Source of the DNA: Escherichia phage vB_EcoM-Pr121LW
Direction: 5' to 3' (one strand)
Length of the DNA: 64,000 nucleotides
Sequence record: MH752840.1
The notes under the pieces are model-generated. The model was not told the origin of the DNA. It saw only the letters and a list, made by a program, of their open reading frames with translations, and did no database searches. How positions within the stretch are numbered: position 1 is the stretch's first letter; each line of letters opens with the position of its first letter. This document shows positions 42,601 through 58,560 of the stretch, piece after piece. The translations under genes and the position numbers were made by a program.

Positions 42601-43058
42601 ATAAATACGGTTGGTATATTAACAAGAACGGGCATGCCCAATTTATGGATGTGTGGGTGAAAGGCAACATCAACGCCAGTTCTGGTAACTTCACAGGGGC
42701 AGTTAATGCCACCAGTGGTACCTTCCGTGGAGATGTTTATGCCAATAATGGTAGCTTTAGAGGCACCATAGATGCAACCGGAGGTACATTCCGTGGTCGT
42801 GTAGAAGCTTCTGTTATCCGTGCTAACCAGTTCGAAGGTGCAATTGTTGCACACAGGACTTACGGAGATTGTGCTCCAGTGCATAACTCCCAGCAGAGGG
42901 TTTGCCGTTGGAGGTGGAGATACGTAGATAACGTTTCAGGTCAAGGTAAGAACGTAACATTCTTCTTTAAACTGAACGGTACTCGTGCCAACTCCCAACT
43001 AAATGCGTGGATAGCTGGTCATCAACTCCTTGCTGGCAAGAAGTACGGGAACGGATAA
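39639..43058 (+). CDS. lambda J-like central tail fibre protein, truncated by a tandem duplication
   Basis: 1139 aa; segments (YYWYIRTTNAFGSSAFVE; QWGAKIQVDSHGNKYVAGIQLGMEG ... NNFAVYNPGNG) match lambda J as I recall it; stop falls at the junction of the 127-bp repeat. Confidence 0.7.
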   Translation: MPIAMIDNIVASARSSSYDWNASKAALADSLNTVTTRTLDKIFEGNKSYRSQQDRQKLLRSSAAPCSVVYGKTRTSGLLAFLEQDRDRTLHCAIVLANHPLEGIEDILIDGNPISSYGDLVSWELHNDRKTSDPFMGTHCPSWSPDMIGRGISWLRASFKFDPSKFPFGLPNVTLVKVGKKCYDPRISKEVYTNNAALVILDYLRTYLKCPDETINWESFREAANICDEAVKNADGTSERRYTINGEFDMDEAPASIMAEMLKACGADLSYVAGKYGLLVGAYYGPATMTLSEDCVCGEVKIYPEASFDKRSNTITGRFTSPTKGYSETDFPSVFVPEWIEKDGERKIIDIDYRFVTSPYQAQRVSAIFLRRARAGRIIEVTCNMRGFKFKPGRYVTMDLPSIGIVGQEMRVLEWEFTKKGGVKVKLRQDAKEWNDATGQLPDSGDVDIPISPSGVAQPQNFRYSVLQAGEVTHGVLAWDNVGTYAQNIVQVRKNGEIVWTAQTVEQFVRVEGLTKGSYTATVVATSYKGGVSPEAYCEFNIQAPEAPVSVEVKQGYFAITLIPHSRDLASVSTQYDFWTSGMTRLPDTSDVTVTSKATRMGVGSTWTSEGLQNDKIYYWYIRTTNAFGSSAFVECAAHCYTSIEDLMPQIDAEFKKTETYKELTANLDNAVKEMDKNVGAVNDRVTSIFEELGDTIEGVVRETTEKFTGVNGEISALNSKLVAAQQSFDDKLAAESGRLGSLIETTNRSTVDLVNRKTQALSEQITATQGALREELKNTESKLNSSIQETNKATTDLLNKTTEAIKQDLVAATGKITKLEDDVQKEVANLQASIQETNSTTVDLVNNTATAIRQELTSAKQEIVDEMGNIDELRATVSNTSKAVTTLEGKIDAQWGAKIQVDSHGNKYVAGIQLGMEGSGGQVQSYFMVSANNFAVYNPGNGTATLAFAIKNNQAFLKDAFIENGTISSAKIAQEISSNNYDGNGYHKYGWYINKNGHAQFMDVWVKGNINASSGNFTGAVNATSGTFRGDVYANNGSFRGTIDATGGTFRGRVEASVIRANQFEGAIVAHRTYGDCAPVHNSQQRVCRWRWRYVDNVSGQGKNVTFFFKLNGTRANSQLNAWIAGHQLLAGKKYGNG

Positions 43059-43180
43059 CGTTTCAGGTCAAGGTAAGAACGTAACATTCTTCTTTAAACT
43101 GAACGGTACTCGTGCCAACTCCCAACTAAATGCGTGGATAGCTGGTCATCAACTCCTTGCTGGCAAGAAGTACGGGAACG
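42927..43180 (+). repeat. perfect tandem direct duplication, 2 x 127 bp
   Basis: 42927-43053 and 43054-43180 are identical base for base; 127 is not a multiple of 3. Confidence 0.9.
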
Positions 43181-43365
43181 CCAACGATGGCATGTGTGCA
43201 ATTGGGATAACAGGTCTAGGTGAACAAACTATAGACATTATTATTGAAATCTACACCCCGTGGTCAACGTCAAACGTGACAGGTGTCACAATCTCCTGTC
43301 CCACTGTGATCGTTAGTCGTTCTAACTCAAGCTTCCAGGGACCTTGGAACGAGTCTCACGACTAA
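43054..43365 (+). pseudogene. displaced C-terminal coding segment of the J-like gene (+1 frame)
   Basis: Frame +1 re-encodes DNVSGQGKNVTFFF...KKYGN from repeat copy 2 and continues ANDGMCAIGITG... to a stop at 43365; no independent RBS or ATG. Confidence 0.5.
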
Positions 43366-43470: not shown

Positions 43471-44961
43471 GTGGCTAAGTATGGATTGACAGAGGCTGGT
43501 TTCGTTATACCAACCCTAAATGACCTAATCGTTGAAACTAAGCAAAGCCTGATCCGTGCTTTTGGCGAAAACTTCAACGTACAGAGTAACTCCGTTGCAG
43601 ATAAGCTGACCACTATCTTCAACGAGCGAGAGTATCAACTTATTCTTATGGCAGCATCTGTATACGCATCACAGACGCTGTATGGGGCAGAAGGTATTTA
43701 CCTAGACGAACTTCTTGGAAGACGGGGTATTTACCGAAGAGGCCGTTCTAAATCATCAGGTACCTGCCAGTTGACGATCAACACAACTGTTCCGTACAAT
43801 ATGATTTACGATTCCAAAACTTATACGTTGGATAGTGGCAACTTTGTTCTTAGCAATGATGTGCAAGTAGCAGGGAATCTTATTGCTCACAGAATAAATG
43901 CTCCAGACCTAAGGATTGGTAAATACAACTTTCAAATTACCAACCAGACAGATGGAAGTATCAAAACAAAAAGTCTGGTTTTAACAGATAAGGCTCTGGA
44001 CTCTTCTGATCTGCCAAGCTTTTACGGAGAGATTAAGCAATTCATTGTCGATAATACAACTCTGTTGAACGACGATTTGATTCAGATCGATATGTTGACA
44101 GGAACGTTGTGGATAGGGTACAATTCGAATCTTGACCAAGTTGGACTTAATAGTAGGGTAGATTTCAGAGTATCCCCGATTGTAGGGGAAAGAACTATCA
44201 CCCTAGATGTTATCGCTAACGAGGCTGGTGAGCTGTCAAGAGAGGCAGAAACCGTGACAACAATGTCACCTACTCCCAGTGGATTTATCAAGCTTACCAA
44301 CCGAGAAAGATTCAATGAGGGAAGGGATGTTGAGAAAGACTCAGAGTACCGCTTAAGAGCTTCCAGCACAAAACAGTTAACATCTAAGGCTACCCGTCCT
44401 GCAATCCTTAGCGCTGTAAGCGAGGTGAAAGGTGTTGAGAAAGTGAGAGTGTTCTCTAACAATACCGATAAAACTGATGCTAAAGGTATACCTCCTTACA
44501 AGTTCCAAGTGGTTGTGTTTGGTGGTGCAACAGAGGACATTTGCCAAGCACTTTACCAAACTATAGCCTGTACGAACAGGACTTATGGTAATATTTTCTA
44601 CGATGTAACTACATCTGACGGTCAAACTGAAAGAATTTATTATTCCAAGGCAAATACCTACCGCCTGGATGTAAGAATTACCTACTCCGGTGCTGCGCTT
44701 TCCACAACCGAAAAAGATGCCATTGTAGAGGCTCTTTTGCAGGTTGTTAACGGACTGGATGTTGCAGATACGTTGTACAATATCCAATTGGTCGGTGCTG
44801 CATCTGCTGCTGTGTCGATAGGTAGATTTAATAGACTGGTAATTCAAGTTAAACCTGTGGGTGCTTCTGATGAAGCTTACACTGCAAACGATATTGTTGC
44901 AAACATGACCGAGGTGTTTGACCTCGATGAAAGTAATATAACTTTCCAACAAACTATTTAG
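43471..44961 (+). CDS. baseplate J-like protein
   Basis: 496 aa, GTG start behind GGAGGA; N-terminal region resembles P2 gpJ / Mu gp47 family. Confidence 0.5.
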   Translation: MAKYGLTEAGFVIPTLNDLIVETKQSLIRAFGENFNVQSNSVADKLTTIFNEREYQLILMAASVYASQTLYGAEGIYLDELLGRRGIYRRGRSKSSGTCQLTINTTVPYNMIYDSKTYTLDSGNFVLSNDVQVAGNLIAHRINAPDLRIGKYNFQITNQTDGSIKTKSLVLTDKALDSSDLPSFYGEIKQFIVDNTTLLNDDLIQIDMLTGTLWIGYNSNLDQVGLNSRVDFRVSPIVGERTITLDVIANEAGELSREAETVTTMSPTPSGFIKLTNRERFNEGRDVEKDSEYRLRASSTKQLTSKATRPAILSAVSEVKGVEKVRVFSNNTDKTDAKGIPPYKFQVVVFGGATEDICQALYQTIACTNRTYGNIFYDVTTSDGQTERIYYSKANTYRLDVRITYSGAALSTTEKDAIVEALLQVVNGLDVADTLYNIQLVGAASAAVSIGRFNRLVIQVKPVGASDEAYTANDIVANMTEVFDLDESNITFQQTI

Positions 44962-44972
44962 GGCGGTGAGAT

Positions 44973-45659
44973 ATGGCAGAGATTAAGTCGGATGTTAACC
45001 ACATCCACACTCTGCCAGATTTTGTTCAGGGGGGTCTTGACTACCTGCCTGGAGATTTTCTGGCTGAGAAGGTTAATTTAGTCACATTCTTAACCGTGTA
45101 CCTTAAAAGGTTGGAGGATGTTGATAAGATGCTGGTAGGTTTGGCTGAAGGAAGATTGCTTAACAATGCCAGCGGAAGATACCTTGACGAAGTTGGTAAT
45201 CAACTCGGTATTCTTAGGAATGGACTTTCAGATGCTGATTTTCGTGCCACACTAATTATTCAGCAGGCCGCAGCATCAAGGGGCGGGACTCGCGAAGATG
45301 TCATCTCCACCTTGCGACAATTGTTCGGAAGAGACAATTTCGATACGTGGAAAGGAGACAACTTCAGGTTTGACATAAATATTAGAAAAACTTGCTTTGA
45401 CATATTGCAGTCTATTGATCAGATCTTAGACATGCTACCACTGCCTTGTCATTTGCGTCTTACAGAATCGCAAGGGCAAGCTTTTGGTTTTGAAGGTGAC
45501 TCTACAGCTCTTGGCTTCGGATCAGTGTGGGAAGAAAACCAATTCGGAGTTGGTGGGCTGGCTACTTTGCTGTATGTTCCTGACGTAAGACCTGATTGGG
45601 ACACCACAACCATTTATTGTGAAAGCATTACAGTAAACGCAACTAGACAGGAGGGTTAA
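44973..45659 (+). CDS. baseplate protein (gpI-like position)
   Basis: 228-aa ORF immediately after the baseplate J-like gene. Confidence 0.4.
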   Translation: MAEIKSDVNHIHTLPDFVQGGLDYLPGDFLAEKVNLVTFLTVYLKRLEDVDKMLVGLAEGRLLNNASGRYLDEVGNQLGILRNGLSDADFRATLIIQQAAASRGGTREDVISTLRQLFGRDNFDTWKGDNFRFDINIRKTCFDILQSIDQILDMLPLPCHLRLTESQGQAFGFEGDSTALGFGSVWEENQFGVGGLATLLYVPDVRPDWDTTTIYCESITVNATRQEG

Positions 45660-47731
45660 TGGCAACAGCTGTTTTTAAACCTTACCGTGATTACTCTACA
45701 ATGGCTGCACGGTTTCATTACCGCACAGTTCAGGATACTGCCGTTCCTGGTAGGGATTATGATCATGTTGAGGGCGATATAACTATCCCAGTTGGGGCAA
45801 CCAGTATTGAGATTCCAGTGGAAATTGTTGACAAATTACCCAACAGGTTACCAAGAAGCTTCTTTATGGAGTTTTCATCAAAATCTCAAGGGGTGATGAT
45901 TGGAACACAAAGGGCGAAATGCACAATAGTTTCAGATGAGAATCTTGACAGGATATCTTGGGATACTGTCGAGGAGAGAATGTTTCACCCAAGATATTGG
46001 GTTACAACTACTCAGCAGACTGAAAGTACCTGTATTGTTGCAGATGACAACTGTTGTATTAACCGTTTAGTGTCAAGAACATATGGAGGTATGGCTGGGT
46101 GCATTTGGGAAACAGTTGACAAGTATGACCATTTCGGTATTGGGTTTGATGATCACTATGAGATGAGAAACACCAAGCTTTGGTTCAGAATGTCAATAAC
46201 CAATGCCAGCAACTTCTCCACTCCTGAAAAGATGATTATGACTGTAGACCTTGTTGATGGTACAATCATCTATGTTCCTTTAGCTCAATATGCTGTCAGC
46301 ATCTCAGAGGATAAGAATGTTGCAGAGATTCATATTGATTTCGAGGACTGCGTCGGGATGGATCAGAACAACAACATGATGGGTGTTGATCCTCGACAGG
46401 TGAGAAGAATTTTAATACCGCTTATGCCTAAAGACTGGGTAAGTAATAGCACAGACCCGAGAACGGAAAATGTAGAGTGTGAGTTGCGCCTAGATCTGCT
46501 TCAGCCAGACACGGGCTGGAAAATGATGCAACTTAACAATATTCAGGTTAAAGAGCACGACGTTGGGATCTGCACCGCATATGACGATATGTGGAACGTA
46601 TCTCCTTTAAGGGTGTTGAACAATATCAAGCGTCTGGGCTATACCGGAACCATAAACCATTATGTTGGTATGAGTCATTATTATGACTACACATGGTCAG
46701 GAACCCAATGGTCTATAAACAGAACAGGGGCGCTAAACGCTGCAGCTTATAAATGGCATGATGATTTTATGTACAATGCCAAACGACATAACTTCGACGT
46801 TATGCAGTCTGTAAGTTTTGAGCTTTACAGCGATGCCTGCCCGTTGGAATGGACCCAAAGAGACTGGAATGATAACTACGCTAAAACAGGATATACACCT
46901 TGTAGCTACCTCCTGTCTCCAACCATTGAAGAGGGTATGAATTTCCTTACTGCAGTATTTAAGAATTTTGCATCAGCCGCTATGAGAAACAACCTGCCAG
47001 TGATTATGCAGGTTGGTGAACCGTGGTGGTGGTACAATACCGATACTCGTAGACCTTGTATTTATGATTACCCTACAAAACAGGCGTTTTATGATGAGAC
47101 AGGCGAGTATGCCTTAGATATTGGGACTATTGACGATCCTAAAACTGGAGGTGTTTACGACAAGTATGTAGCATTTTGTCGTGGTAAGCTTGGCGCTCGT
47201 ATTGCGGCTATTTCAAAGGCAATAAAGGCGCATGCTGCATCAGCTAAGATGACAGCTCTGCTGTTTTTCCCAACCATTATGGAAACCGAACTTACGCAAA
47301 AGCTTAACCTTGCTGACCAATATAAAAAAGAAGCAGGTGCTCTTGATTTCTTCTGCACTGAGTGCTACGATTGGGTGATGCAGGGAGGTATTGAAAAGGC
47401 AAAAGAGTCTGTAAACATACCTATCGTTAAGTTAGGTTGGCAACCGTCTGAAATACAATACCTTGCAGGGTTCGTTCCTAGTAAAGAGCTTGCTCCGGTA
47501 TATGGATACGACCCAACTAGGAATTACCAAGAATTTTTATGGAGATGTATTTGCGGAAACATGGCAACTATAGAGTATAGATACCCTGAGGTAAAACAGT
47601 ATGTGTGGGCATACCCGCAAGTAATGTCTGACAGCATCACTGTTACCGCTAGAGATTCTACCGTGCTTCATATGGGGCAGGTTGCTCTGAAAGGGTATGT
47701 AGAAGATGTTGTCCCGCCAGACTTCTCATAA
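45659..47731 (+). CDS. virion protein with N-terminal Calx-beta-like domain
   Basis: 690 aa; N-terminal motif TAVPGRDYDHVEGDITIPVGATSIEIPVEIVD ... FFMEF fits the Calx-beta pattern. Confidence 0.45.
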   Translation: MATAVFKPYRDYSTMAARFHYRTVQDTAVPGRDYDHVEGDITIPVGATSIEIPVEIVDKLPNRLPRSFFMEFSSKSQGVMIGTQRAKCTIVSDENLDRISWDTVEERMFHPRYWVTTTQQTESTCIVADDNCCINRLVSRTYGGMAGCIWETVDKYDHFGIGFDDHYEMRNTKLWFRMSITNASNFSTPEKMIMTVDLVDGTIIYVPLAQYAVSISEDKNVAEIHIDFEDCVGMDQNNNMMGVDPRQVRRILIPLMPKDWVSNSTDPRTENVECELRLDLLQPDTGWKMMQLNNIQVKEHDVGICTAYDDMWNVSPLRVLNNIKRLGYTGTINHYVGMSHYYDYTWSGTQWSINRTGALNAAAYKWHDDFMYNAKRHNFDVMQSVSFELYSDACPLEWTQRDWNDNYAKTGYTPCSYLLSPTIEEGMNFLTAVFKNFASAAMRNNLPVIMQVGEPWWWYNTDTRRPCIYDYPTKQAFYDETGEYALDIGTIDDPKTGGVYDKYVAFCRGKLGARIAAISKAIKAHAASAKMTALLFFPTIMETELTQKLNLADQYKKEAGALDFFCTECYDWVMQGGIEKAKESVNIPIVKLGWQPSEIQYLAGFVPSKELAPVYGYDPTRNYQEFLWRCICGNMATIEYRYPEVKQYVWAYPQVMSDSITVTARDSTVLHMGQVALKGYVEDVVPPDFS

Positions 47732-47743
47732 TCAGGAGATAAA

Positions 47744-48784
47744 ATGTCAAAACCTAGTTTTCCATTAGAGATTTGGGCAGAGGAGGATCAGGTTCTGCCT
47801 AACACCCACAGACAGAACAGGCTACGCCCGATTGATGATTTGTGGAGAAAAGGTTGGGATCTTGGTCAAAAGCCCTCATGTGAAGAACTTAACTATATTT
47901 TCAATATGCTCGGAACTTGGGCAAAATATATTGCTGACGAGCAGATCCCCGCTCAAGAAGGCCGTTATCTGGTACGCGATAATAACTTGAGTGATCTTTT
48001 GAACATTCCTGTTGCCCGTAGAAACCTTGGGATTATTACTAAGGAAGAGGCAGACGCCAGGTATGTAAAAGTTACAGGTGATACAATGACAGGCCCACTG
48101 GGTTTGCAACGTATCAACTTTAAAGCTGCCGAGACAGATAAGGCTTGGATAGAGACAACTATTGGCCCAGATAAGACAACTCTCGACTTTGGGTTAAGTG
48201 ATAATACCGGGTCGTTTGATGATGGTGGTACATCTACAGTAGATGCGTTTCGTTGGAGATTCCAGCCAACTCAACCGGATATCAATCCGGAGTTCACTTT
48301 GATGTACCTTAACGCGATCACGGCTAACCGTGCGCTGTTGAAAGTGATAGGCAATGTTGAAGTTGTCGATAACATGAGGTGCAATAACCTTACTATCAGC
48401 AATACAGCAACATTCACCAACTGTAATGTGGCTAGTCAGTTGACGGCTGGGTCAGTGTATGTTAATGGTGGTACAAGTTGTGACAGTATGGTTGTAAGAA
48501 GTCAGCACTGTGTTGTCGGTAACAGAAATGTGGTGCGCTCTGTGAATGGAGTGACGGCTAACGGTAACGGTGATGTAACAATCACTATCCCGCAGACAGG
48601 TGTGCAAGACATCAGAATCGGTGCAAGACTTGTTGACGGCGTTTCTGAATCTCCAATTCGCAACGGCTACGTTGTCACAGGCTGGCATTTCGGTGACAAA
48701 AAAGAGATGCGTGGTTCAACCTACTGGGCAGGACCTTTACAAAAACTTGTAAATGGTCAATGGATCACTGTTAATTATGCATAG
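47744..48784 (+). CDS. tail fibre protein, P2 gpH-like C-terminus
   Basis: 346 aa; C-terminal GPLQKLVNGQWITVNYA resembles the P2 gpH C-terminus; paralogue of the 49799 gene. Confidence 0.6.
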   Translation: MSKPSFPLEIWAEEDQVLPNTHRQNRLRPIDDLWRKGWDLGQKPSCEELNYIFNMLGTWAKYIADEQIPAQEGRYLVRDNNLSDLLNIPVARRNLGIITKEEADARYVKVTGDTMTGPLGLQRINFKAAETDKAWIETTIGPDKTTLDFGLSDNTGSFDDGGTSTVDAFRWRFQPTQPDINPEFTLMYLNAITANRALLKVIGNVEVVDNMRCNNLTISNTATFTNCNVASQLTAGSVYVNGGTSCDSMVVRSQHCVVGNRNVVRSVNGVTANGNGDVTITIPQTGVQDIRIGARLVDGVSESPIRNGYVVTGWHFGDKKEMRGSTYWAGPLQKLVNGQWITVNYA

Positions 48785-48798
48785 ATCGGAGGACTAGC

Positions 48799-49383
48799 AT
48801 GAAAATACTTCAAGAGTTTAAACTTTACCAACCGGGATCTGGCGAATACCACCCTAACAAGGGAACCAAGGAGCTGACCCCTCAAGAGGTTGAGGATTAC
48901 ACCGCATACACTGGGTATTTTTTACGTAATGATGATGGCGATTGGTATGTGCAGTCACGAACATTGCGACAAGAAAATCCGGGTTGTATCTTCCTACTTG
49001 TTGACGAGAAGGGAATTCTTAAGACATCTACAGAAGAACCTGATGCCCTATGGCCTGCTCCAGGTCTTCGTGTGGTTATCGCCAAAAAAGAAGAGGTACC
49101 AGAAAACATTATGCTTCACCACGACGCTTTGCGTTTAGTTGGTGATGAATTTGTCACAGACAATGAATTCTTTGTTCAACAGGCAGAGGGTGTCATAGAG
49201 ACAGAACTTGCTTGGGCTACTGCTAGAATTGGTGCCTATCAAGACATGATTGACCTTGAATATGATCTTACTGATGACCAGAAACGTAACATCAGAGATT
49301 TGAAAATGTACAGGGTAAAACTTCTTGAAATAGATACATCTAAAGCCCCTGACATTTTCTTCCCGGAGCGACCTACCCTCTAA
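48799..49383 (+). CDS. tail fibre assembly chaperone (Tfa-like)
   Basis: 194 aa immediately downstream of the gpH-like fibre; C-terminal region ends APDIFFPERP, typical of Tfa proteins. Confidence 0.55.
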   Translation: MKILQEFKLYQPGSGEYHPNKGTKELTPQEVEDYTAYTGYFLRNDDGDWYVQSRTLRQENPGCIFLLVDEKGILKTSTEEPDALWPAPGLRVVIAKKEEVPENIMLHHDALRLVGDEFVTDNEFFVQQAEGVIETELAWATARIGAYQDMIDLEYDLTDDQKRNIRDLKMYRVKLLEIDTSKAPDIFFPERPTL

Positions 49384-49768: not shown

Positions 49769-49798
49769 AGTCCTAAGGAATTTTCTCAGGAGAACGTG

Positions 49799-50842
49799 AT
49801 GACTAAACCAGTTATCCCTCTTGATATTTGGGCCAATCAGGATGTTGTGCTTGAAAATACGGGAGAATTGAATAAGTCCCAACCAAAAAAAGAAGAGAGA
49901 CTGAAAGGTTGGGATATGACACAAAGAGTGGCATGTGAAGTTGTTAACTTTGAACTTCACATGCTTTCTGCGTGGTTAAAGCATTTAACAGAAGATGTTG
50001 TCCCAGGATGGGATAATAGATTCTTAAGGGTCACTAATAATCTGGCAGACGTTCCAGACAAAGCTGCTGCACGTCAAGTTCTCAATGTATACTCGCCTGA
50101 AGAAATGGATGACCTTTATGTTGACAAGGCTGGAGACACAATGATCCAGACTCAAACTTTAGGTCTTCAAAGAATCGAGTTTGCATCCGCGTCAACAGAC
50201 AATGCGGCGATATACACCACCATAACTTCAGACAAGACGATGATGGATTTCTGGATTATGGACAACATCGGTGGTGCTGACGGCACAGACCTTGATGATC
50301 CCTCTCACCAAATAGACGGTTTCCGTTGGAGATTTCAACCTTCTGGTGGGCAGCCTGTGTTTTCAGCTATGAAGCTCAATGCTATAACTGCCAACCGTGC
50401 AAGACTGGCTATCCAAGGAAATCTTGAATGCAACGACGCAAAAAGTTCCTCTACAAATGCCAATGCAGCTACTATACCAAGAGCCACTGTTAATGGACAA
50501 CAATCCTGTGGAAGCGCTCAAATAGGTGGAAGAGTTGATTGCAACGATGAAACCGTCAGGGGCCAATATGCAACAGTTGGTGGAAGAAACGTGGTCCGCA
50601 GGGTAAATGGTAACAGCGCAGACGGTAGTGGTAACCTTACTATCCCTATGCCCAGCAGAGGGGTTGATGATGTGAGGATAGCAAACCGTTTCAAAACCAC
50701 CTACAGAGAGTCAAGAGTCTACCCTGGACATGTGATGTGCTCGGGTAACTACGCTTATAAACACCCTTATCAAGGTGATTACTGGACAGGTGCTATCCAA
50801 AAACTTGTAAATGGTCAATGGATCACTATATCTTATGCTTAA
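49799..50842 (+). CDS. tail fibre protein, second P2 gpH-like paralogue
   Basis: N-terminus PLDIWANQD and C-terminus GAIQKLVNGQWITISYA parallel the 47744 gene; start at ATG 49799 behind AGGAGA. Confidence 0.6.
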   Translation: MTKPVIPLDIWANQDVVLENTGELNKSQPKKEERLKGWDMTQRVACEVVNFELHMLSAWLKHLTEDVVPGWDNRFLRVTNNLADVPDKAAARQVLNVYSPEEMDDLYVDKAGDTMIQTQTLGLQRIEFASASTDNAAIYTTITSDKTMMDFWIMDNIGGADGTDLDDPSHQIDGFRWRFQPSGGQPVFSAMKLNAITANRARLAIQGNLECNDAKSSSTNANAATIPRATVNGQQSCGSAQIGGRVDCNDETVRGQYATVGGRNVVRRVNGNSADGSGNLTIPMPSRGVDDVRIANRFKTTYRESRVYPGHVMCSGNYAYKHPYQGDYWTGAIQKLVNGQWITISYA

Positions 50843-52923: not shown

Positions 52924-55900
52924 ATGCTTCCAATCCCTTTGCTAAAACTTGGTCGTCATTTCCTCGATAAGAGGGGTGGAATTAAGGAACTTGCTGTTCT
53001 GTCATACCCAATAGACAACAGTGATGGTACAAGCAATACAGTATCCTATGTAAATAGCTTAGCTATACTTTTTGATGATGGTCAGCTTAATATTACTGGC
53101 TATAATAGGTTCGGAGAGTGTCGGACTGGAGATCTTGATACAATAAACTATCCTAATGAGGCAGCTTGGAACGTAGACCATGTTTGGAGAGCTGACCGTG
53201 CATTTGTAATCCGCACATTCGATAATAAATTTTTCTATATTGGTTGCACAGCTGGTCTTATCGGATCTGAGGCAGCAGGTGGAAACGATGTTTGTGTCAG
53301 AGAGTGGACACCTTTGCCGGAACAGATTGTAACAGGGTTGCATTTGGACACCCATCCTGAGAGACTTGTTGAAGTAATGGGTGGCGTAAACAATACAGTG
53401 TGGGTAATTGCTGCACCAGAGGCTGATGGTATGCTTCACCTGTACGGCTCTGGCAATAATACTTACGGCTCTCTTCATGTTGACAAAAATCAACACGCTA
53501 CTCCAGTTAAGATTGGTGAAACATCTGAAAGTCCAGAGACAGGTCCTTGGAAAAATCCAAGAATTAATTGTGAAGTTCATGACAACTCGGTTATTTTTGG
53601 TGGTCCTAACGGATTCTGGATTGCAGGTTACGATTTCTTAAGAAATAACAGCAAAAACGCACTAGTTTATCCAGCCGAGCATGTGACTCTTGACCAGTTT
53701 AAAGGCATCCCAGTGGGCGAGACATGGAAAGGGTTCATGTGTGGGCCTAATGGTGCAATTATAGCCACAGAAAGGATGCACAAACCTGATGACCAACAGC
53801 TTGTTAATGTGTTTTATGGTCAGGATGTTTGGGGTGACGACACGTGGAGAAGCCTTAACATCACCTATACCCATGAAGTAATTATGGCTCGCGGGTACGG
53901 GACTAGTGGAATTTTCTTCAATAATGGTACAAAACAGTACCGTGGTTTCTCCAGAAACCTGTGTAACGATATTGGTGCTCAATCTGCTAATAATAATCCT
54001 AGGGCCAATTTTATTCATTACAGAGCGCTGGCAACAGCTAAGTTTGTTGAACAGACAGAGCCAGTAAGCTGGACAGAAAGCGTTTATTTTCAAGGGATCC
54101 ACAGGGAAGGTTTCTTAGGCACATTTTGTGTGGTAAATGGAAAGCTTTGGTGGTCAGGAATACCACGTGGTAGTTTTTCAGGATCTAATAACCTCTTTGG
54201 CGGCAGACTTAACAGCCAAGGGTTCACAGAGATTCCGGAGAATTGGTATAAAAATGTCCCGGTAGATAGCTGGGGTATCGAAGACATCTTTGATGTCAAT
54301 GGTGTGAGCAATGCTAGCAACATTTACATTGGAGATACTGTCAAGATGAAATTGAAACCTCAGCCGGAGGGTGCTACGTTCATTATTGACAAGATTGAGT
54401 TGGTAAATGCTGCAGGCACTGTTGTTACAGATGCAAACTATCAGTTCTCCACTAACTGGAACCATGGTGGTGCTAACGAAGTTGTGGTTACCCAGTATAA
54501 CCGTAACATCAACAGACGTGGTTTGTATTCTATCAAGATCACCTACCATGACAAGCATGGCACTGGAAGAACCTATACGACAAGGACTTTGAACTGGAAC
54601 ACTATAGTTCCTGCGTATCCGTCCGACGGCAAGTGGCATACCGTTGGTAGAAACAAGCAGTTCCATGTTAACGATACTGTATACTTTGGGCTGAATGGGA
54701 CCCAGCCTGCAGTAGAAGGGGATACATCGTATATGGTCAGACTCCACAGAATGGATGCTGGATCAGTCACTTATGATGTGACCCAAGAGATCTACGATCA
54801 AAGACGCGCCACGTATGACAATATTGTGAAAACACAAGCCTTGTGGGAGTTCAATCCCAATGGCAAGGGTGGTAAAATGTTGCAGGTTAATGAGCAGAAC
54901 GGAACGTCGTTGACTGTTCACGAACACCCAGACCCTTGGCCTGATCCTGGAAAACCTCACCCGGGAGCTCGTACACTGAAAATTGTCAGCCATGATGCAG
55001 GATATTTCGGAATACGCTGGGAAGCCACAGTAAGATATGCCGACGGGACAACAAACAACATAGGGATCACCCTTGGTGGCACTAGTGAGGATAACTCACT
55101 GAAAATTGCCTATACCCCTAGAGGCATCTCTATTGATAATATGGATGTTGTTCGCAACGGTTACGGTGATGTAAATGTCAAAGTTACTCTTGGTGAACAT
55201 CTCGGTGGGGAAAGGATCATCATGTATGCCTTTGATCATGATCCTCGCACCAACGGAACCTATGCAAATCAGGCGTGGAGTTACCTGATAAATGCACCTG
55301 AGCCGAATACTAAAGAGTTTTATTACGGTATGAAGCGGGATGTGTGCAAGAAAACAGGGACACATGATTGGATTGCTATCTGCGTTAAAGATGAACGAAC
55401 CGCTTGGGACGAGCCTGTTAACCGATGGTTCATAGGGATTCCCACCAGAAGTGATAAGTATGTCGCAGAATATATTGTGTGCATGGGCGGCACCAACCTG
55501 AACTTGTGTTGGAACGAGGATGCAAATAAATACTCTGATTATGACTATATGAGGGATATCTCTTGCAATCAGTGGTTTAGCCAATCAACAGGTTACCCTC
55601 CAAGACAGGCGAGAGTAAACCCTGCAATCTTCACAGACACGCAGGTTTTCTTGACAAAACAGGCCAACGAGGTTCAGACATTCAAGAATAAATACGATCC
55701 TAACAAGTGGTTCTACAACTGTTACGGCGCATTTTTCTGGGGACCTGGTGAGTTACCTGGTGGAGGATCTTGCTTGAATGAGGCAACTTACGCCAGTGAC
55801 TACATCATGGGGCAGGTCAAGAAGTATAAGATAATCCCCGGTCCTGAGACTTTGGGCAATGCCGTTGACCCTTATATCATCATGACTGCACTGAGATCAA

Positions 55901-58560
55901 ACATGGATGGGACATCCATGTCCATGCAAATTCCGGTAACAAACGGATACAAACGTGTTGTGATGATCATTAAGTGCGACCTGATAGGTAAACAAGTTCT
56001 TGCAGAAAACGGGACATCCACACATCCTTTTGAGATCGCTCTACACTATCAGTTTGCTGACTCACCTTTTGCAGGGGATAAGAGAATATCTGATACAGAC
56101 GCACAGCGTTGTAAGAAAGTATTGTTGGGTGCAGGTTGGTGGTGGTATGAGTTTGATTTAACAGATAAATTCACCGACACGTCTAAAGTTGTAACAGGAC
56201 TTCGTCTAGACTTTGGCGAGAACATGCACAAAGCTGTTTGTGATGGCACCTATGGTGACCCTACAATATACCTAAAATATGTTTCTTTTGAGCATCCGGA
56301 AGATGTTGTCTACGGTCCAAAACTGAGATTGTTTGGCAGCTGGATTGCAAAAGATAGGGTAGGTATGGGTAAGAAGGTAAGAGGGTTCTTGGTTGATGCA
56401 GGAACAGAAGACATGCTGGTTAATGCAGTATGGCCTGAATTACCTGGGACTCAGTGGGACAACTCAGCCAAATCTGTAAACTGGTTTAACATTCATAGGG
56501 CCATGTGGACCACTAACTGCTACTTGTGGAGAGAGCTTAACGATCAGGCCTTTGGCTTCAGCGATGGTAGAAGGATGGCGATCATTTGCTGGACAACACT
56601 GCAAAGATGTTATGACCATAACTATGAGATTGGAGGCAGGGAATGGAAAAATATCAGGGACAGAATCATAACCAATTTTGCAGACGACAACGGTGGCGGA
56701 GCACATAACTTTGGCACAAGCCGACTCATCCATTTGAACGGATCCTCAGCCTACAAGAAAGAAGGATACTCTGGGTCCATGATTGAGTGGGGTCTGGTAA
56801 AAGATGCTCGTGTGTTGATGGGTCAGCAACTTGCTGCTGCAATAGGGCCGAACGCAGTACAATCTGTTAAACCAGCGTGGTTCGATATCCCATTATGGTC
56901 ATCTGGAACACCAGGAACTGCTGCAATCAACCCTGCCACTGGGGATTTGGAAATCTCCTGGGAAGACTTGAAGCAGGTCGGTGGTTGGGACAAAACAGGG
57001 TATCAGGTTCAGTGGTGGAGAGCTGACGGATCTTTAGCCGCTGATGAGTTTGTTAAGGACAATTTCTACACCATGTCCTCTGCAAAAGCACAGGAATTGT
57101 TCGGTCAGGCAACTCCGTCAACGATCACCATGTCCATGTGCTGTAAAGACAACAGGACTGGAGCTTTGGGGCCAAGGGTTGCTAAGGTTTTCTCAGGTAT
57201 TAAATGGAATCCCTCTGTTCAAAGTGTTTCATGGAAGCAAATAGGTGATAACAAGCTGCTAGTTACCCCCGCCTGTCAGTTCAACGCAACTCTTAACGTT
57301 GATCCTGCTGCTGCGGCAAACTCAGCTAAAGCTTCTGACTTCTCTGTGTCTAACACTGCTATGGCAGATGTGAGGAAGATTGACACGCTGAACGCCAGAA
57401 TTACCTGTAAAAACACTTATGGCACATTCCAGATCATCAACAACTTCACAGATGCTGATTCTAAGGTAGTGAGGACAGCAAGCCAGACTCTGAGTTTAGG
57501 AACTCTGGCCTATGCAGCCCTGATCACTGAACAGTCGGCAACACTCCAAGGAGGTGGTGTAGGCAAGTCTATTACAACACCTGTGTGGAAGCCAAATGAG
57601 TGGGTTGTGTTTGATTTGACTGTGGACTTCTCCAGTGATAATAACTGGACATGGGTAAGGGATTGCTTGTCACAACTGATGGGTGGTCCAAGCTCCGTTA
57701 GTGATAGCCACGACTCCACTGACCCGAGTGTGTTTCAGGTGGGTAAAACTCACCCGGAGACTGGAGCAACTTTGCCTGACAGGAAGTATGCTTTGGTTTG
57801 CATCTCTTACGGAAAAGCAGATGTCACCTTCTCAGGAACACACACTTATAACGGTACATATAACTTCTCAAGGAAGTATAGTCTCAAGGCAGGGAACATT
57901 ATAGATGAGGTTGGTCCGTTATATAACCCTGGCAACGGGATAGGGATTGTAGGCGGCAAACTGCAGATGCAGGAACCTTCTATTACTCCTTCCAACGTGT
58001 CTGGGATCAGGAAGACTTGGGAAAGTAACAATACTGGCATCGCAACTGTGGATGCTACCACCGGACTGGTAACATTTAAAGCTCCCGGTGATGTCACTAT
58101 AACGTTTATAGTTACTGATGATGCAGGGCGCAAAACGTCTTCAACATCTTTTACTGTCAAACAGATGGCACCACAGTGGAGAATGTGGATAGGTACAGCA
58201 ACAAACGGGGCATACCCTAATCCGGCAGGTACTTCTGGTATGAAGACTTTCTCTACAAGCGAACCGATGGAGTACGGCAGCGGTCCTAAGGTAGGACAGA
58301 TGGTATACTTTGGTGCGTATATTCCTGAAATTATAGGGCTTCCGAGAAGTCAGCTTCAGTTGCTGTTTGGGGCTGGTGTTGACGATCTTGCCACTTTCGG
58401 GTATAGCGACAACATCGAGGCTGCAAGGAGTTCAGGATGGGTAGGGTTCAGAATGGAGTCTGGAAAGGAAGGCAGGATTCTAGGGACAGCCTCTATAGGT
58501 GTTATGTTCCCTGGTGACCAGCAGTATCGCCTGAAAGCCTACGCAACTTTCTCTCTTTAA
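52924..58560 (+). CDS. giant virion-associated protein with Ig-like (Big_2-type) domain
   Basis: 1878-aa uninterrupted ORF behind a GGAGAA RBS; Ig-like segment SGIRKTWESNNTGIATVDATTGLVTFKAPGDVTITFIVTDDAGRKTSSTSFTV near the C-terminus. Confidence 0.55.
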   Translation: MLPIPLLKLGRHFLDKRGGIKELAVLSYPIDNSDGTSNTVSYVNSLAILFDDGQLNITGYNRFGECRTGDLDTINYPNEAAWNVDHVWRADRAFVIRTFDNKFFYIGCTAGLIGSEAAGGNDVCVREWTPLPEQIVTGLHLDTHPERLVEVMGGVNNTVWVIAAPEADGMLHLYGSGNNTYGSLHVDKNQHATPVKIGETSESPETGPWKNPRINCEVHDNSVIFGGPNGFWIAGYDFLRNNSKNALVYPAEHVTLDQFKGIPVGETWKGFMCGPNGAIIATERMHKPDDQQLVNVFYGQDVWGDDTWRSLNITYTHEVIMARGYGTSGIFFNNGTKQYRGFSRNLCNDIGAQSANNNPRANFIHYRALATAKFVEQTEPVSWTESVYFQGIHREGFLGTFCVVNGKLWWSGIPRGSFSGSNNLFGGRLNSQGFTEIPENWYKNVPVDSWGIEDIFDVNGVSNASNIYIGDTVKMKLKPQPEGATFIIDKIELVNAAGTVVTDANYQFSTNWNHGGANEVVVTQYNRNINRRGLYSIKITYHDKHGTGRTYTTRTLNWNTIVPAYPSDGKWHTVGRNKQFHVNDTVYFGLNGTQPAVEGDTSYMVRLHRMDAGSVTYDVTQEIYDQRRATYDNIVKTQALWEFNPNGKGGKMLQVNEQNGTSLTVHEHPDPWPDPGKPHPGARTLKIVSHDAGYFGIRWEATVRYADGTTNNIGITLGGTSEDNSLKIAYTPRGISIDNMDVVRNGYGDVNVKVTLGEHLGGERIIMYAFDHDPRTNGTYANQAWSYLINAPEPNTKEFYYGMKRDVCKKTGTHDWIAICVKDERTAWDEPVNRWFIGIPTRSDKYVAEYIVCMGGTNLNLCWNEDANKYSDYDYMRDISCNQWFSQSTGYPPRQARVNPAIFTDTQVFLTKQANEVQTFKNKYDPNKWFYNCYGAFFWGPGELPGGGSCLNEATYASDYIMGQVKKYKIIPGPETLGNAVDPYIIMTALRSNMDGTSMSMQIPVTNGYKRVVMIIKCDLIGKQVLAENGTSTHPFEIALHYQFADSPFAGDKRISDTDAQRCKKVLLGAGWWWYEFDLTDKFTDTSKVVTGLRLDFGENMHKAVCDGTYGDPTIYLKYVSFEHPEDVVYGPKLRLFGSWIAKDRVGMGKKVRGFLVDAGTEDMLVNAVWPELPGTQWDNSAKSVNWFNIHRAMWTTNCYLWRELNDQAFGFSDGRRMAIICWTTLQRCYDHNYEIGGREWKNIRDRIITNFADDNGGGAHNFGTSRLIHLNGSSAYKKEGYSGSMIEWGLVKDARVLMGQQLAAAIGPNAVQSVKPAWFDIPLWSSGTPGTAAINPATGDLEISWEDLKQVGGWDKTGYQVQWWRADGSLAADEFVKDNFYTMSSAKAQELFGQATPSTITMSMCCKDNRTGALGPRVAKVFSGIKWNPSVQSVSWKQIGDNKLLVTPACQFNATLNVDPAAAANSAKASDFSVSNTAMADVRKIDTLNARITCKNTYGTFQIINNFTDADSKVVRTASQTLSLGTLAYAALITEQSATLQGGGVGKSITTPVWKPNEWVVFDLTVDFSSDNNWTWVRDCLSQLMGGPSSVSDSHDSTDPSVFQVGKTHPETGATLPDRKYALVCISYGKADVTFSGTHTYNGTYNFSRKYSLKAGNIIDEVGPLYNPGNGIGIVGGKLQMQEPSITPSNVSGIRKTWESNNTGIATVDATTGLVTFKAPGDVTITFIVTDDAGRKTSSTSFTVKQMAPQWRMWIGTATNGAYPNPAGTSGMKTFSTSEPMEYGSGPKVGQMVYFGAYIPEIIGLPRSQLQLLFGAGVDDLATFGYSDNIEAARSSGWVGFRMESGKEGRILGTASIGVMFPGDQQYRLKAYATFSL

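Follow-up and report, generated by a model that had tools for sequence, protein, structure and literature searches.

A virion protein of Escherichia phage vB_EcoM-Pr121LW joins a Calx-beta domain to a glycosidase-like TIM barrel of the phage N4 gp64/gp65 family

We examined a 64,000-nucleotide stretch of the genome of Escherichia phage vB_EcoM-Pr121LW (sequence record MH752840.1; hereafter the window, with positions counted from its first letter), in which a plus-strand gene at 45659–47731 encodes a 690-amino-acid (aa) protein corresponding to ORF 34 (gp34) of phage rV5. A first-pass annotation, made from the sequence alone, had described the product as a virion protein with an N-terminal Calx-beta-like domain and had suggested a calcium-dependent adhesion or enzymatic role in receptor interaction. 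The open reading frame (ORF) is real, starts with ATG and has exactly the coordinates given there. The gene, its start region, the three domains of its product and the candidate functional residues are as follows.

45659–47731, stop codon included, plus strand: gp34-type gene encoding the 690-aa virion protein (ORF list and translation).
45650–45661, plus strand: ribosome-binding site GGAGGG at 45650–45655, then TAATG (read from the sequence).
45659–45958, plus strand: Calx-beta beta-sandwich, aa 1 to approximately 100, in which the first canonical strand is missing, as are most carboxylates of the calcium ligands.
45980–46510, plus strand: NCTSP_N (non-contractile tail sheath protein N-terminal domain), the middle beta-sandwich, aa 108–284 (PF23844, E 6.7e-13).
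46553–47632, plus strand: TIM-barrel_NCTSP, the C-terminal (beta/alpha)8 barrel, aa 299–658 (PF23845, E 1.7e-79, profile positions 2–346 of 348).
46583–46588, plus strand: carboxylate pair D309-D310 where the first barrel strand ends, a candidate site for catalysis or substrate binding (97% and 96% conserved).
46667–46681, plus strand: GMSHY, aa 337–341 (translation), a k-mer described in a preprint for phages targeting the NGR (N4 glycan receptor) exopolysaccharide.
47018–47020, plus strand: E454, in QVGEPWWW where a barrel strand ends, candidate general acid (99% conserved; invariant in alignment A1).
47360–47362, plus strand: E568 in TECYDW, candidate nucleophile, base or sugar-binding residue (96% conserved, as is D571).

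The counterpart in rV5 (ABI79105.1) is 99% identical in aa sequence, also 690 aa long, with the same coordinates and the same gene neighbours; it is the same protein, with nothing of substance different. A megablast search with the gp34-type gene matched 116 phage records, almost entirely rV5-like Vequintavirus genomes, of which 109 were 95–99% identical in nucleotide sequence; Escherichia phage MiataMamis was the top match (99.1%). The product is part of the virion, as the first-pass annotation had proposed: mass spectrometry (MS) of rV5 virions yielded 4 peptides and 18 spectra of the 99%-identical gp34, at 10.3% coverage (Table S5/Additional file 5, PMC3606486). Gene 34 appears in Table S3 of that paper as "structural protein (MS evidence)" with PF03160/smart00237 Calx-beta, i.e., the Calx-beta finding has been known since its publication for rV5 in 2013 (PMC3606486), and the C-terminal barrel was not recognized in that annotation (Kropinski et al. 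2013, PMC3606486). Phage phi92 Gp142 and the phAPEC8-type orthologues (Justusliebigvirus, Phapecoctavirus) have the same three domains; they belong to other genera and are diverged, with approximately 42–43% identity over 99% of the length. One orthologue from a phAPEC8-like phage is already named "Calx-beta domain protein" in a GenBank record. The gp34-type gene was also found, at approximately 98% nucleotide identity to E. coli rV5-like phages, in 16 unannotated records (21 by protein search; MG0656xx) that are labelled 'Campylobacter phage' and give Campylobacter jejuni as host; the host label is probably wrong, or the phage collection was contaminated.

The first-pass annotation had left the remaining 590 residues without a family and had thereby missed a named one. 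PF23844 and PF23845 both scored above their cut-offs and in the correct order; together they form the NCTSP module, the family of N4 gp64/gp65. The family name describes phage N4, not the setting in the window, where the gene lies in the baseplate/fibre operon of a contractile-tailed rV5-like myovirus. A full-length AlphaFold model built with 32 homologues (predicted local distance difference test, pLDDT, 93.6; predicted template-modelling score, pTM, 0.90) consists of two beta-sandwiches followed by a beta/alpha barrel, and its NCTSP_N stretch is all-beta with high confidence. Structure prediction of the C-terminal part for a hydrolase or lyase fold, which the first-pass annotation had recommended, thus yielded a glycosidase-like TIM barrel. 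The folds closest to the modelled barrel were all active glycosidases, GH42, GH5 and GH164 (GH, glycoside hydrolase) enzymes included, and the best structural match was the hydrolase-only chain of a PgaB orthologue. The earlier notion of an enzymatic role in receptor interaction therefore fits this glycosidase-like barrel and the published receptor link described below; its emphasis on calcium was wrong.

The barrel of the window protein is superposable on the (beta/alpha)8 barrel of the PgaB/BpsB C-terminal domain (GH153, PDB 6AU1). CAZy families are defined by sequence, and by sequence the window protein is not a member of GH153 (7% identity, no Pfam GHL13 match). Alignment of its family with E. 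coli PgaB by hhalign gave a probability of 0.9%, which is not significant; the sole aligned segment, likewise not significant, was PgaB 503–567, within the hydrolase domain. The two systems also differ in the acid residue (Asp after His in PgaB/BpsB, Glu after Gly in the window candidate), in substrate (dPNAG, deacetylated poly-N-acetylglucosamine, versus presumably a polymer containing N-acetylmannosamine, ManNAc) and in location (a periplasmic biosynthesis enzyme versus a virion protein).

Among 1.84 billion cluster representatives, only 328 matched the barrel region at E ≤ 1e-3. These relatives include sequences from phages of E. coli and Acinetobacter, from a gene-transfer-agent-like cluster of Sphingomonas and from a plasmid of Deinococcus. 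Among the matches listed, the relatives were 155–2953 aa long with a highly variable position of the barrel, as expected for a mobile tail module. The window barrel was aligned with 74 full-length-barrel relatives of varied architectures that were 26–49% identical to it. In these 75 sequences, D309, D310, E388, E454, D470, D563, E568 and D571 were 92–99% conserved, and the aromatic residues Y308, Y335, W366, W456, W458, Y469, Y570, W628 and W650 were conserved to a similar degree. Active sites of TIM-barrel enzymes lie at the C-terminal ends of the strands; in the model, the conserved carboxylates and aromatics are predicted at or just past these ends. N4 gp64 has QIGEPWWW at the E454 motif and QIEDYDW at the E568 motif. 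The surface glycans of the hosts of these relatives presumably differ, and carboxylates that remain constant nevertheless are more typical of catalysis than of ligand specificity. Retaining glycosidases of GH clan A have an acid/base Glu in an Asn-Glu-Pro motif on strand 4 and a nucleophile Glu on strand 7. The window protein has 'GEP' with E454, where Gly stands for Asn, and a second conserved Glu, E568; a DSSP strand count places E568 on strand 7 if aa 416–419 are taken as a barrel strand and on strand 6 if they are not. In BpsB, H473-D474 is catalytic; structurally, D474 takes the place of the catalytic aspartate of GH20 and GH18 enzymes, DspB (GH20) being the comparison in the PgaB paper. 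The offsets of E454 and BpsB D474 from their domain starts are +155 and +156, a comparison of linear spacing only; on the same linear spacing, D309/D310 may correspond to BpsB D326/D328, E454 to D474 and E568 to E585.

The only sequence relative with a solved structure was phage N4 Gp64 (9LC0, 9YF4, 9YF5; E 1.2e-23), and in N4 the module is divided between two chains after the second barrel strand. NCTSP_N lies at aa 57–130 of N4 gp65 by Pfam (aa 45–129 by the family profile), and the first barrel segment at aa 362–417, "GMTSGFDDGYN...YIGMSHYW", with IGMSHYW at approximately aa 408–414. The remaining barrel is in N4 gp64, aa 109–410; the first 96 residues of gp64 contain neither barrel motif. 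In family-profile coordinates, the two chains are consecutive and do not overlap (gp65 67–319, gp64 332–638), and Pfam agrees. That is, on the evidence of these alignments, domains 2 and 3 of the window protein are the same module that N4 builds from the N-terminal third of gp65 and most of gp64. In the window, it is a single chain with a Calx-beta N-terminus encoded in a myovirus baseplate operon, whereas N4 gp65 has approximately 965 further residues and the gp65/gp64 complex wraps a podovirus tail. Because N4 uses two chains, the Gp64 homology reported in the BASEL paper (PMC8594841) and the 59–76-aa Gp65 homology reported in a preprint (10.64898/2026.04.02.716166) are halves of one domain. 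The preprint proposed convergent evolution of NGR binders (10.64898/2026.04.02.716166); the N4 split would instead argue for common descent. It also predicts that, in the gp64–gp65 heterodimer of the N4 sheath, the barrel would be assembled from both chains. Matches starting at barrel position 43–65 were considered as further 'split barrel' genes; the two that were checked begin at a contig edge and are truncated, not split. Support for the split comes from N4-type phages only.

As for the ligand, published genetics and co-occurrence suggest NGR. Vequintavirinae, phi92-like phages and N4 require wecB, nfrA and nfrB, i.e., the NGR exopolysaccharide (PMC8669472), and the gp34-type protein is conserved in a locus in which the large fibre genes vary (PMC8594841). 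The GMSHY k-mer is perfectly conserved in NGR-targeting phages and is the best sequence predictor of NGR use (10.64898/2026.04.02.716166). This signature of NGR-targeting receptor-binding proteins is present in the window protein; G337, M338 and S339 are invariant in alignment A1, and G337 and S339 are conserved in 100% and 95% of the 75 sequences. The same preprint named phi92 Gp142 the NGR receptor-binding protein (10.64898/2026.04.02.716166), and for Vequintaviruses, NGR was given as the primary receptor and the lipopolysaccharide (LPS) core GlcI as the terminal receptor (preprint). In a review that cites Schwarzer 2012, phi92 Gp142 is given as a 'glycosidase', and the rV5_ev146 annotation reads "baseplate protein with EPS depolymerase activity" (EPS, exopolysaccharide). 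These two annotations agree better with the fold than the deacetylase label discussed below.

We therefore propose that gp34 copies on the baseplate would bind the NfrA/NfrB/WecB-dependent NGR exopolysaccharide. The gp34 barrel would probably cleave NGR as a glycosidase with E454 as the acid. In this way the phage would get past the O-antigen layer, and its short fibres would come within reach of the LPS core. We regard it as reasonably probable that the protein is borne on the baseplate, binds NGR and probably cleaves it; for actual hydrolysis of NGR, we put the chance a little short of even. A broader joint reading is tentative. It holds that the module represents a new virion-borne glycoside hydrolase family, GH153-like in fold only, whose enterobacterial substrate would be the uncharacterized ManNAc-dependent NGR, and that the N4 sheath heterodimer would be held together by a TIM barrel assembled in trans, to which gp65 would contribute strands 1–2 with GMSHY and gp64 the remainder. 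If the hydrolase part were true, the published 'deacetylase' label would be wrong, and if the barrel were assembled in trans, the NGR binders of myoviruses and podoviruses would be alike through simple homology of a single module and not through convergence. Several points weigh against these proposals. The link between the protein and NGR is correlative, and in the structural papers on N4, it is the gp66 appendages that are assigned the binding of NGR. Enzymatic activity is unreported in the literature. The strand assignment of E454 and E568 is predicted only, and the relatedness to PgaB at the sequence level is insignificant, as given above. Finally, the residue preceding E454 is Gly, not the Asn of the Asn-Glu-Pro motif typical of GH clan A.

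The incomplete 'NEP' motif is also consistent with an alternative without catalysis, in which the barrel would either bind glycan in the manner of a lectin or serve purely as a 'sheath-like' architectural element of the baseplate. In N4, gp64/gp65 enclose the tail as a structural sheath, published work reports no activity, and in BpsB, most of the conserved carboxylates bind substrate and do not catalyse; the PgaB C-terminal domain itself was originally viewed as polymer-binding. However, residues that bind a ligand usually change when the ligand does, which is not so for catalytic residues, and the carboxylates of this barrel are 92–99% conserved across E. coli and Acinetobacter phages, the Sphingomonas cluster and the Deinococcus plasmid. 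The closest folds, moreover, are all active glycosidases. We judged a non-catalytic barrel unlikely.

A deacetylase is still harder to reconcile with the protein. The label 'glycan deacetylase tailspike' was introduced in the BASEL paper and was carried on in PMC8669472 and 10.64898/2026.04.02.716166; it implies a protein that, in the manner of the phage G7C tailspike, moves along the glycan by deacetylating it. No deacetylase family was matched by the window protein in Pfam even at E ≤ 10, and neither the NodB domain nor the Asp-His-His metal site of carbohydrate esterase family 4 (CE4/NodB) was found. Structural matches were glycosidase barrels and the hydrolase domain of a PgaB orthologue, which indicates a likeness to the hydrolase half of PgaB, not to its CE4 deacetylase half. 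A deacetylase is highly improbable on these grounds, and it is probable that the enzyme class has been mislabelled in the literature.

The N-terminal Calx-beta domain was confirmed. The motif quoted in the first-pass annotation, PGRDYDHVEGDITIPVGATSIEIPVEIVD...FFMEF, is located at aa 30–58 and 68–72. The curated cut-off of Pfam PF03160 (Calx-beta) is 27 bits; the whole protein scored slightly below it (24.7 bits, E 2.4e-5), and the N-domain alone scored above it (29.1 bits, E 1.1e-6). We built a profile from eight orthologous N-domains that were 35–80% identical to that of the window protein. All eight matched Calx-beta in Pfam (best E 2.4e-12), and against PDB sequences, the profile matched NCX1 CBD12 (CBD, calcium-binding domain; 8.1e-18), Drosophila CALX (1.2e-16) and the integrin beta4 Calx-beta domain (1.8e-7), with nothing significant beyond the NCX1, CALX and integrin beta4 Calx-beta domains. 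The phi92/phAPEC8-type N-domains are nearer to the Calx-beta consensus ('DGTAVAGRDY') than that of the window protein. Of the two outcomes named in the first-pass annotation as refuting it, a failed profile search for Calx-beta and absence from virions, neither occurred. An hmmsearch of all six-frame ORFs in the window found no further Calx-beta domain of this kind; another copy would have pointed to an adaptor used in common.

Calcium-binding Calx-beta domains of the NCX type have a cluster of acidic ligands drawn from the E-F loop, the A-B loop and the C-terminal end; in the window domain, D58, D93 and E94 are left of it. HMMER alignment to NCX1 CBD1 paired the NCX1 E-F loop 'IIDDDIFEEDxNF' with IVDKLPNRLPRSF. 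The NCX1 'DDDIFEED' position is 'DKLPNRLP' in the window protein, where D58 is the only acidic residue kept and K59, R63 and R66 stand at ligand positions in place of acidic residues. The Asp of NCX1 'EDGTA' corresponds to Q25, and of the C-terminal Asp triplet, D93 and E94 are left. The match covers positions 39–117 of the 119 in the Pfam profile; because the protein begins at the second canonical strand, the loop with the first NCX1 ligand, E385 on the absent first strand, does not exist. The former ligand positions are not conserved among the eight orthologues. A Calx-beta fold without calcium binding occurs in integrin beta4, which the window domain resembles in lacking the calcium site; CBD1 and CBD2 of NCX1 and CALX differ from it by their acidic loop and first strand. 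Canonical calcium binding by this domain is thus very probably absent, as judged from its residues. The model of the first-pass annotation, in which Calx-beta, with calcium bound, would attach the virion to the host in a calcium-dependent way, is scarcely credible: the fold and family membership are genuine and three former ligand positions keep an acid, but the other ligands are replaced, the strand of the first ligand is gone, the positions vary among orthologues, relatives that keep the barrel have unrelated N-terminal domains instead, and receptor genetics indicate a glycan recognized by the barrel region bearing GMSHY.

At the N-terminus, where the window protein has Calx-beta, relatives that keep NCTSP_N and the barrel have DUF7941 or the distal tail protein domain DUF2460. 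Such swaps suggest that the N-domain is an exchangeable part that fits the enzyme to a given tail. In an E. coli prophage (GCA_025812035.1), DUF7941 heads three tail genes, the pattern expected of a common virion-docking adaptor on alternative receptor-binding proteins. The three encode an 870-aa gp34 homologue, a 584-aa DUF285 protein and a 175-aa protein, and the latter two adjoin as tail-fibre-like genes. In Sphingomonas arenae, an RcGTA-like gene-transfer-agent cluster has, at its g12 position, NCTSP_N and the TIM barrel fused to DUF2460; this fusion occurs in dozens of Sphingomonadales genomes. The swap reading agrees with the position of the gp34-type gene after the baseplate wedge genes and with the suggested translational coupling described below. 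The Calx-beta domain of the window protein is most likely a structural domain or virion adaptor without a canonical calcium site. The pTM of 0.90 suggests that Calx-beta is rigidly packed on the enzyme body, for which an accessory or stabilizing role is as probable as that of an adaptor.

These assignments matter because rV5-like and phi92-like phages have a broad host range and are candidates for therapy and biocontrol, and their O-antigen bypass is attributed to NGR recognition. The Calx-beta observation repeats the 2013 annotation; what is added is the probable mislabelling of the enzyme class and the relationship to the N4 split barrel. For experiments on the conserved candidate NGR protein, a barrel of the glycosidase type in place of a deacetylase fold, and a Calx-beta domain that is very unlikely to be a calcium sensor, narrow down the activity worth assaying and the residues worth mutating. 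The gp34-type protein would also be a reagent for working out NGR chemistry.

The neighbouring genes assigned in the window are as follows.

43471–44961, plus strand: Baseplate_J-like gene, upstream (PF04865, E 3.1e-9; phrog_6).
44973–45659, plus strand: 'baseplate protein' gene, 228 aa, upstream (phrog_4056, E 2.5e-103).
47744–48784, plus strand: short tail fibre gene, downstream (phrog_4465, E 4.3e-171; rV5 gp33).
48799–49383, plus strand: Caudo_TAP fibre chaperone gene, downstream (PF02413, E 1.3e-11; rV5 gp32).

The 228-aa baseplate gene stops inside the start codon of the gp34-type gene, its TAA overlapping the ATG by one base (TAATG); this overlap and the ribosome-binding site suggest, from the sequence, translational coupling to the upstream baseplate gene. 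The short tail fibre and chaperone genes are in the same operon as the gp34-type gene. The baseplate/fibre setting is thus roughly as previously described; the names 'gpI-like' and 'gpH-like' given to the flanking genes were confirmed by no profile and fit by position only.

The short tail fibre gene has a paralogue at 49796–50842; both belong to phrog_4465 (346 and 348 aa), flank the Caudo_TAP chaperone gene and a small ORF, and correspond to rV5 gp33 and gp30, which were earlier noted as T4 gp12-like. Farther downstream, an 1878-aa ORF at 52924–58560 corresponds to rV5 ORF 27 ('cell wall surface anchor', a structural protein with an Ig domain). Of the lateral tail fibre genes at this locus, the three largest show considerable allelic variation according to the BASEL paper (PMC8594841), and the 1878-aa ORF may be among these three. 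Upstream, the lambda-J-like central tail fibre gene contains a perfect (100%) 127-nucleotide tandem duplication (42927–43053 and 43054–43180) that is not in rV5 or rV5_ev146. The duplication shifts the frame, such that the ORF stops at 43058 (1139 aa versus 1279 aa in rV5 gp37) and is followed by a 111-aa ORF at 43030–43365. Because 127 is the largest default SPAdes k-mer, the duplication looks like an untrimmed overlap of a circular contig, i.e., an assembly artefact.

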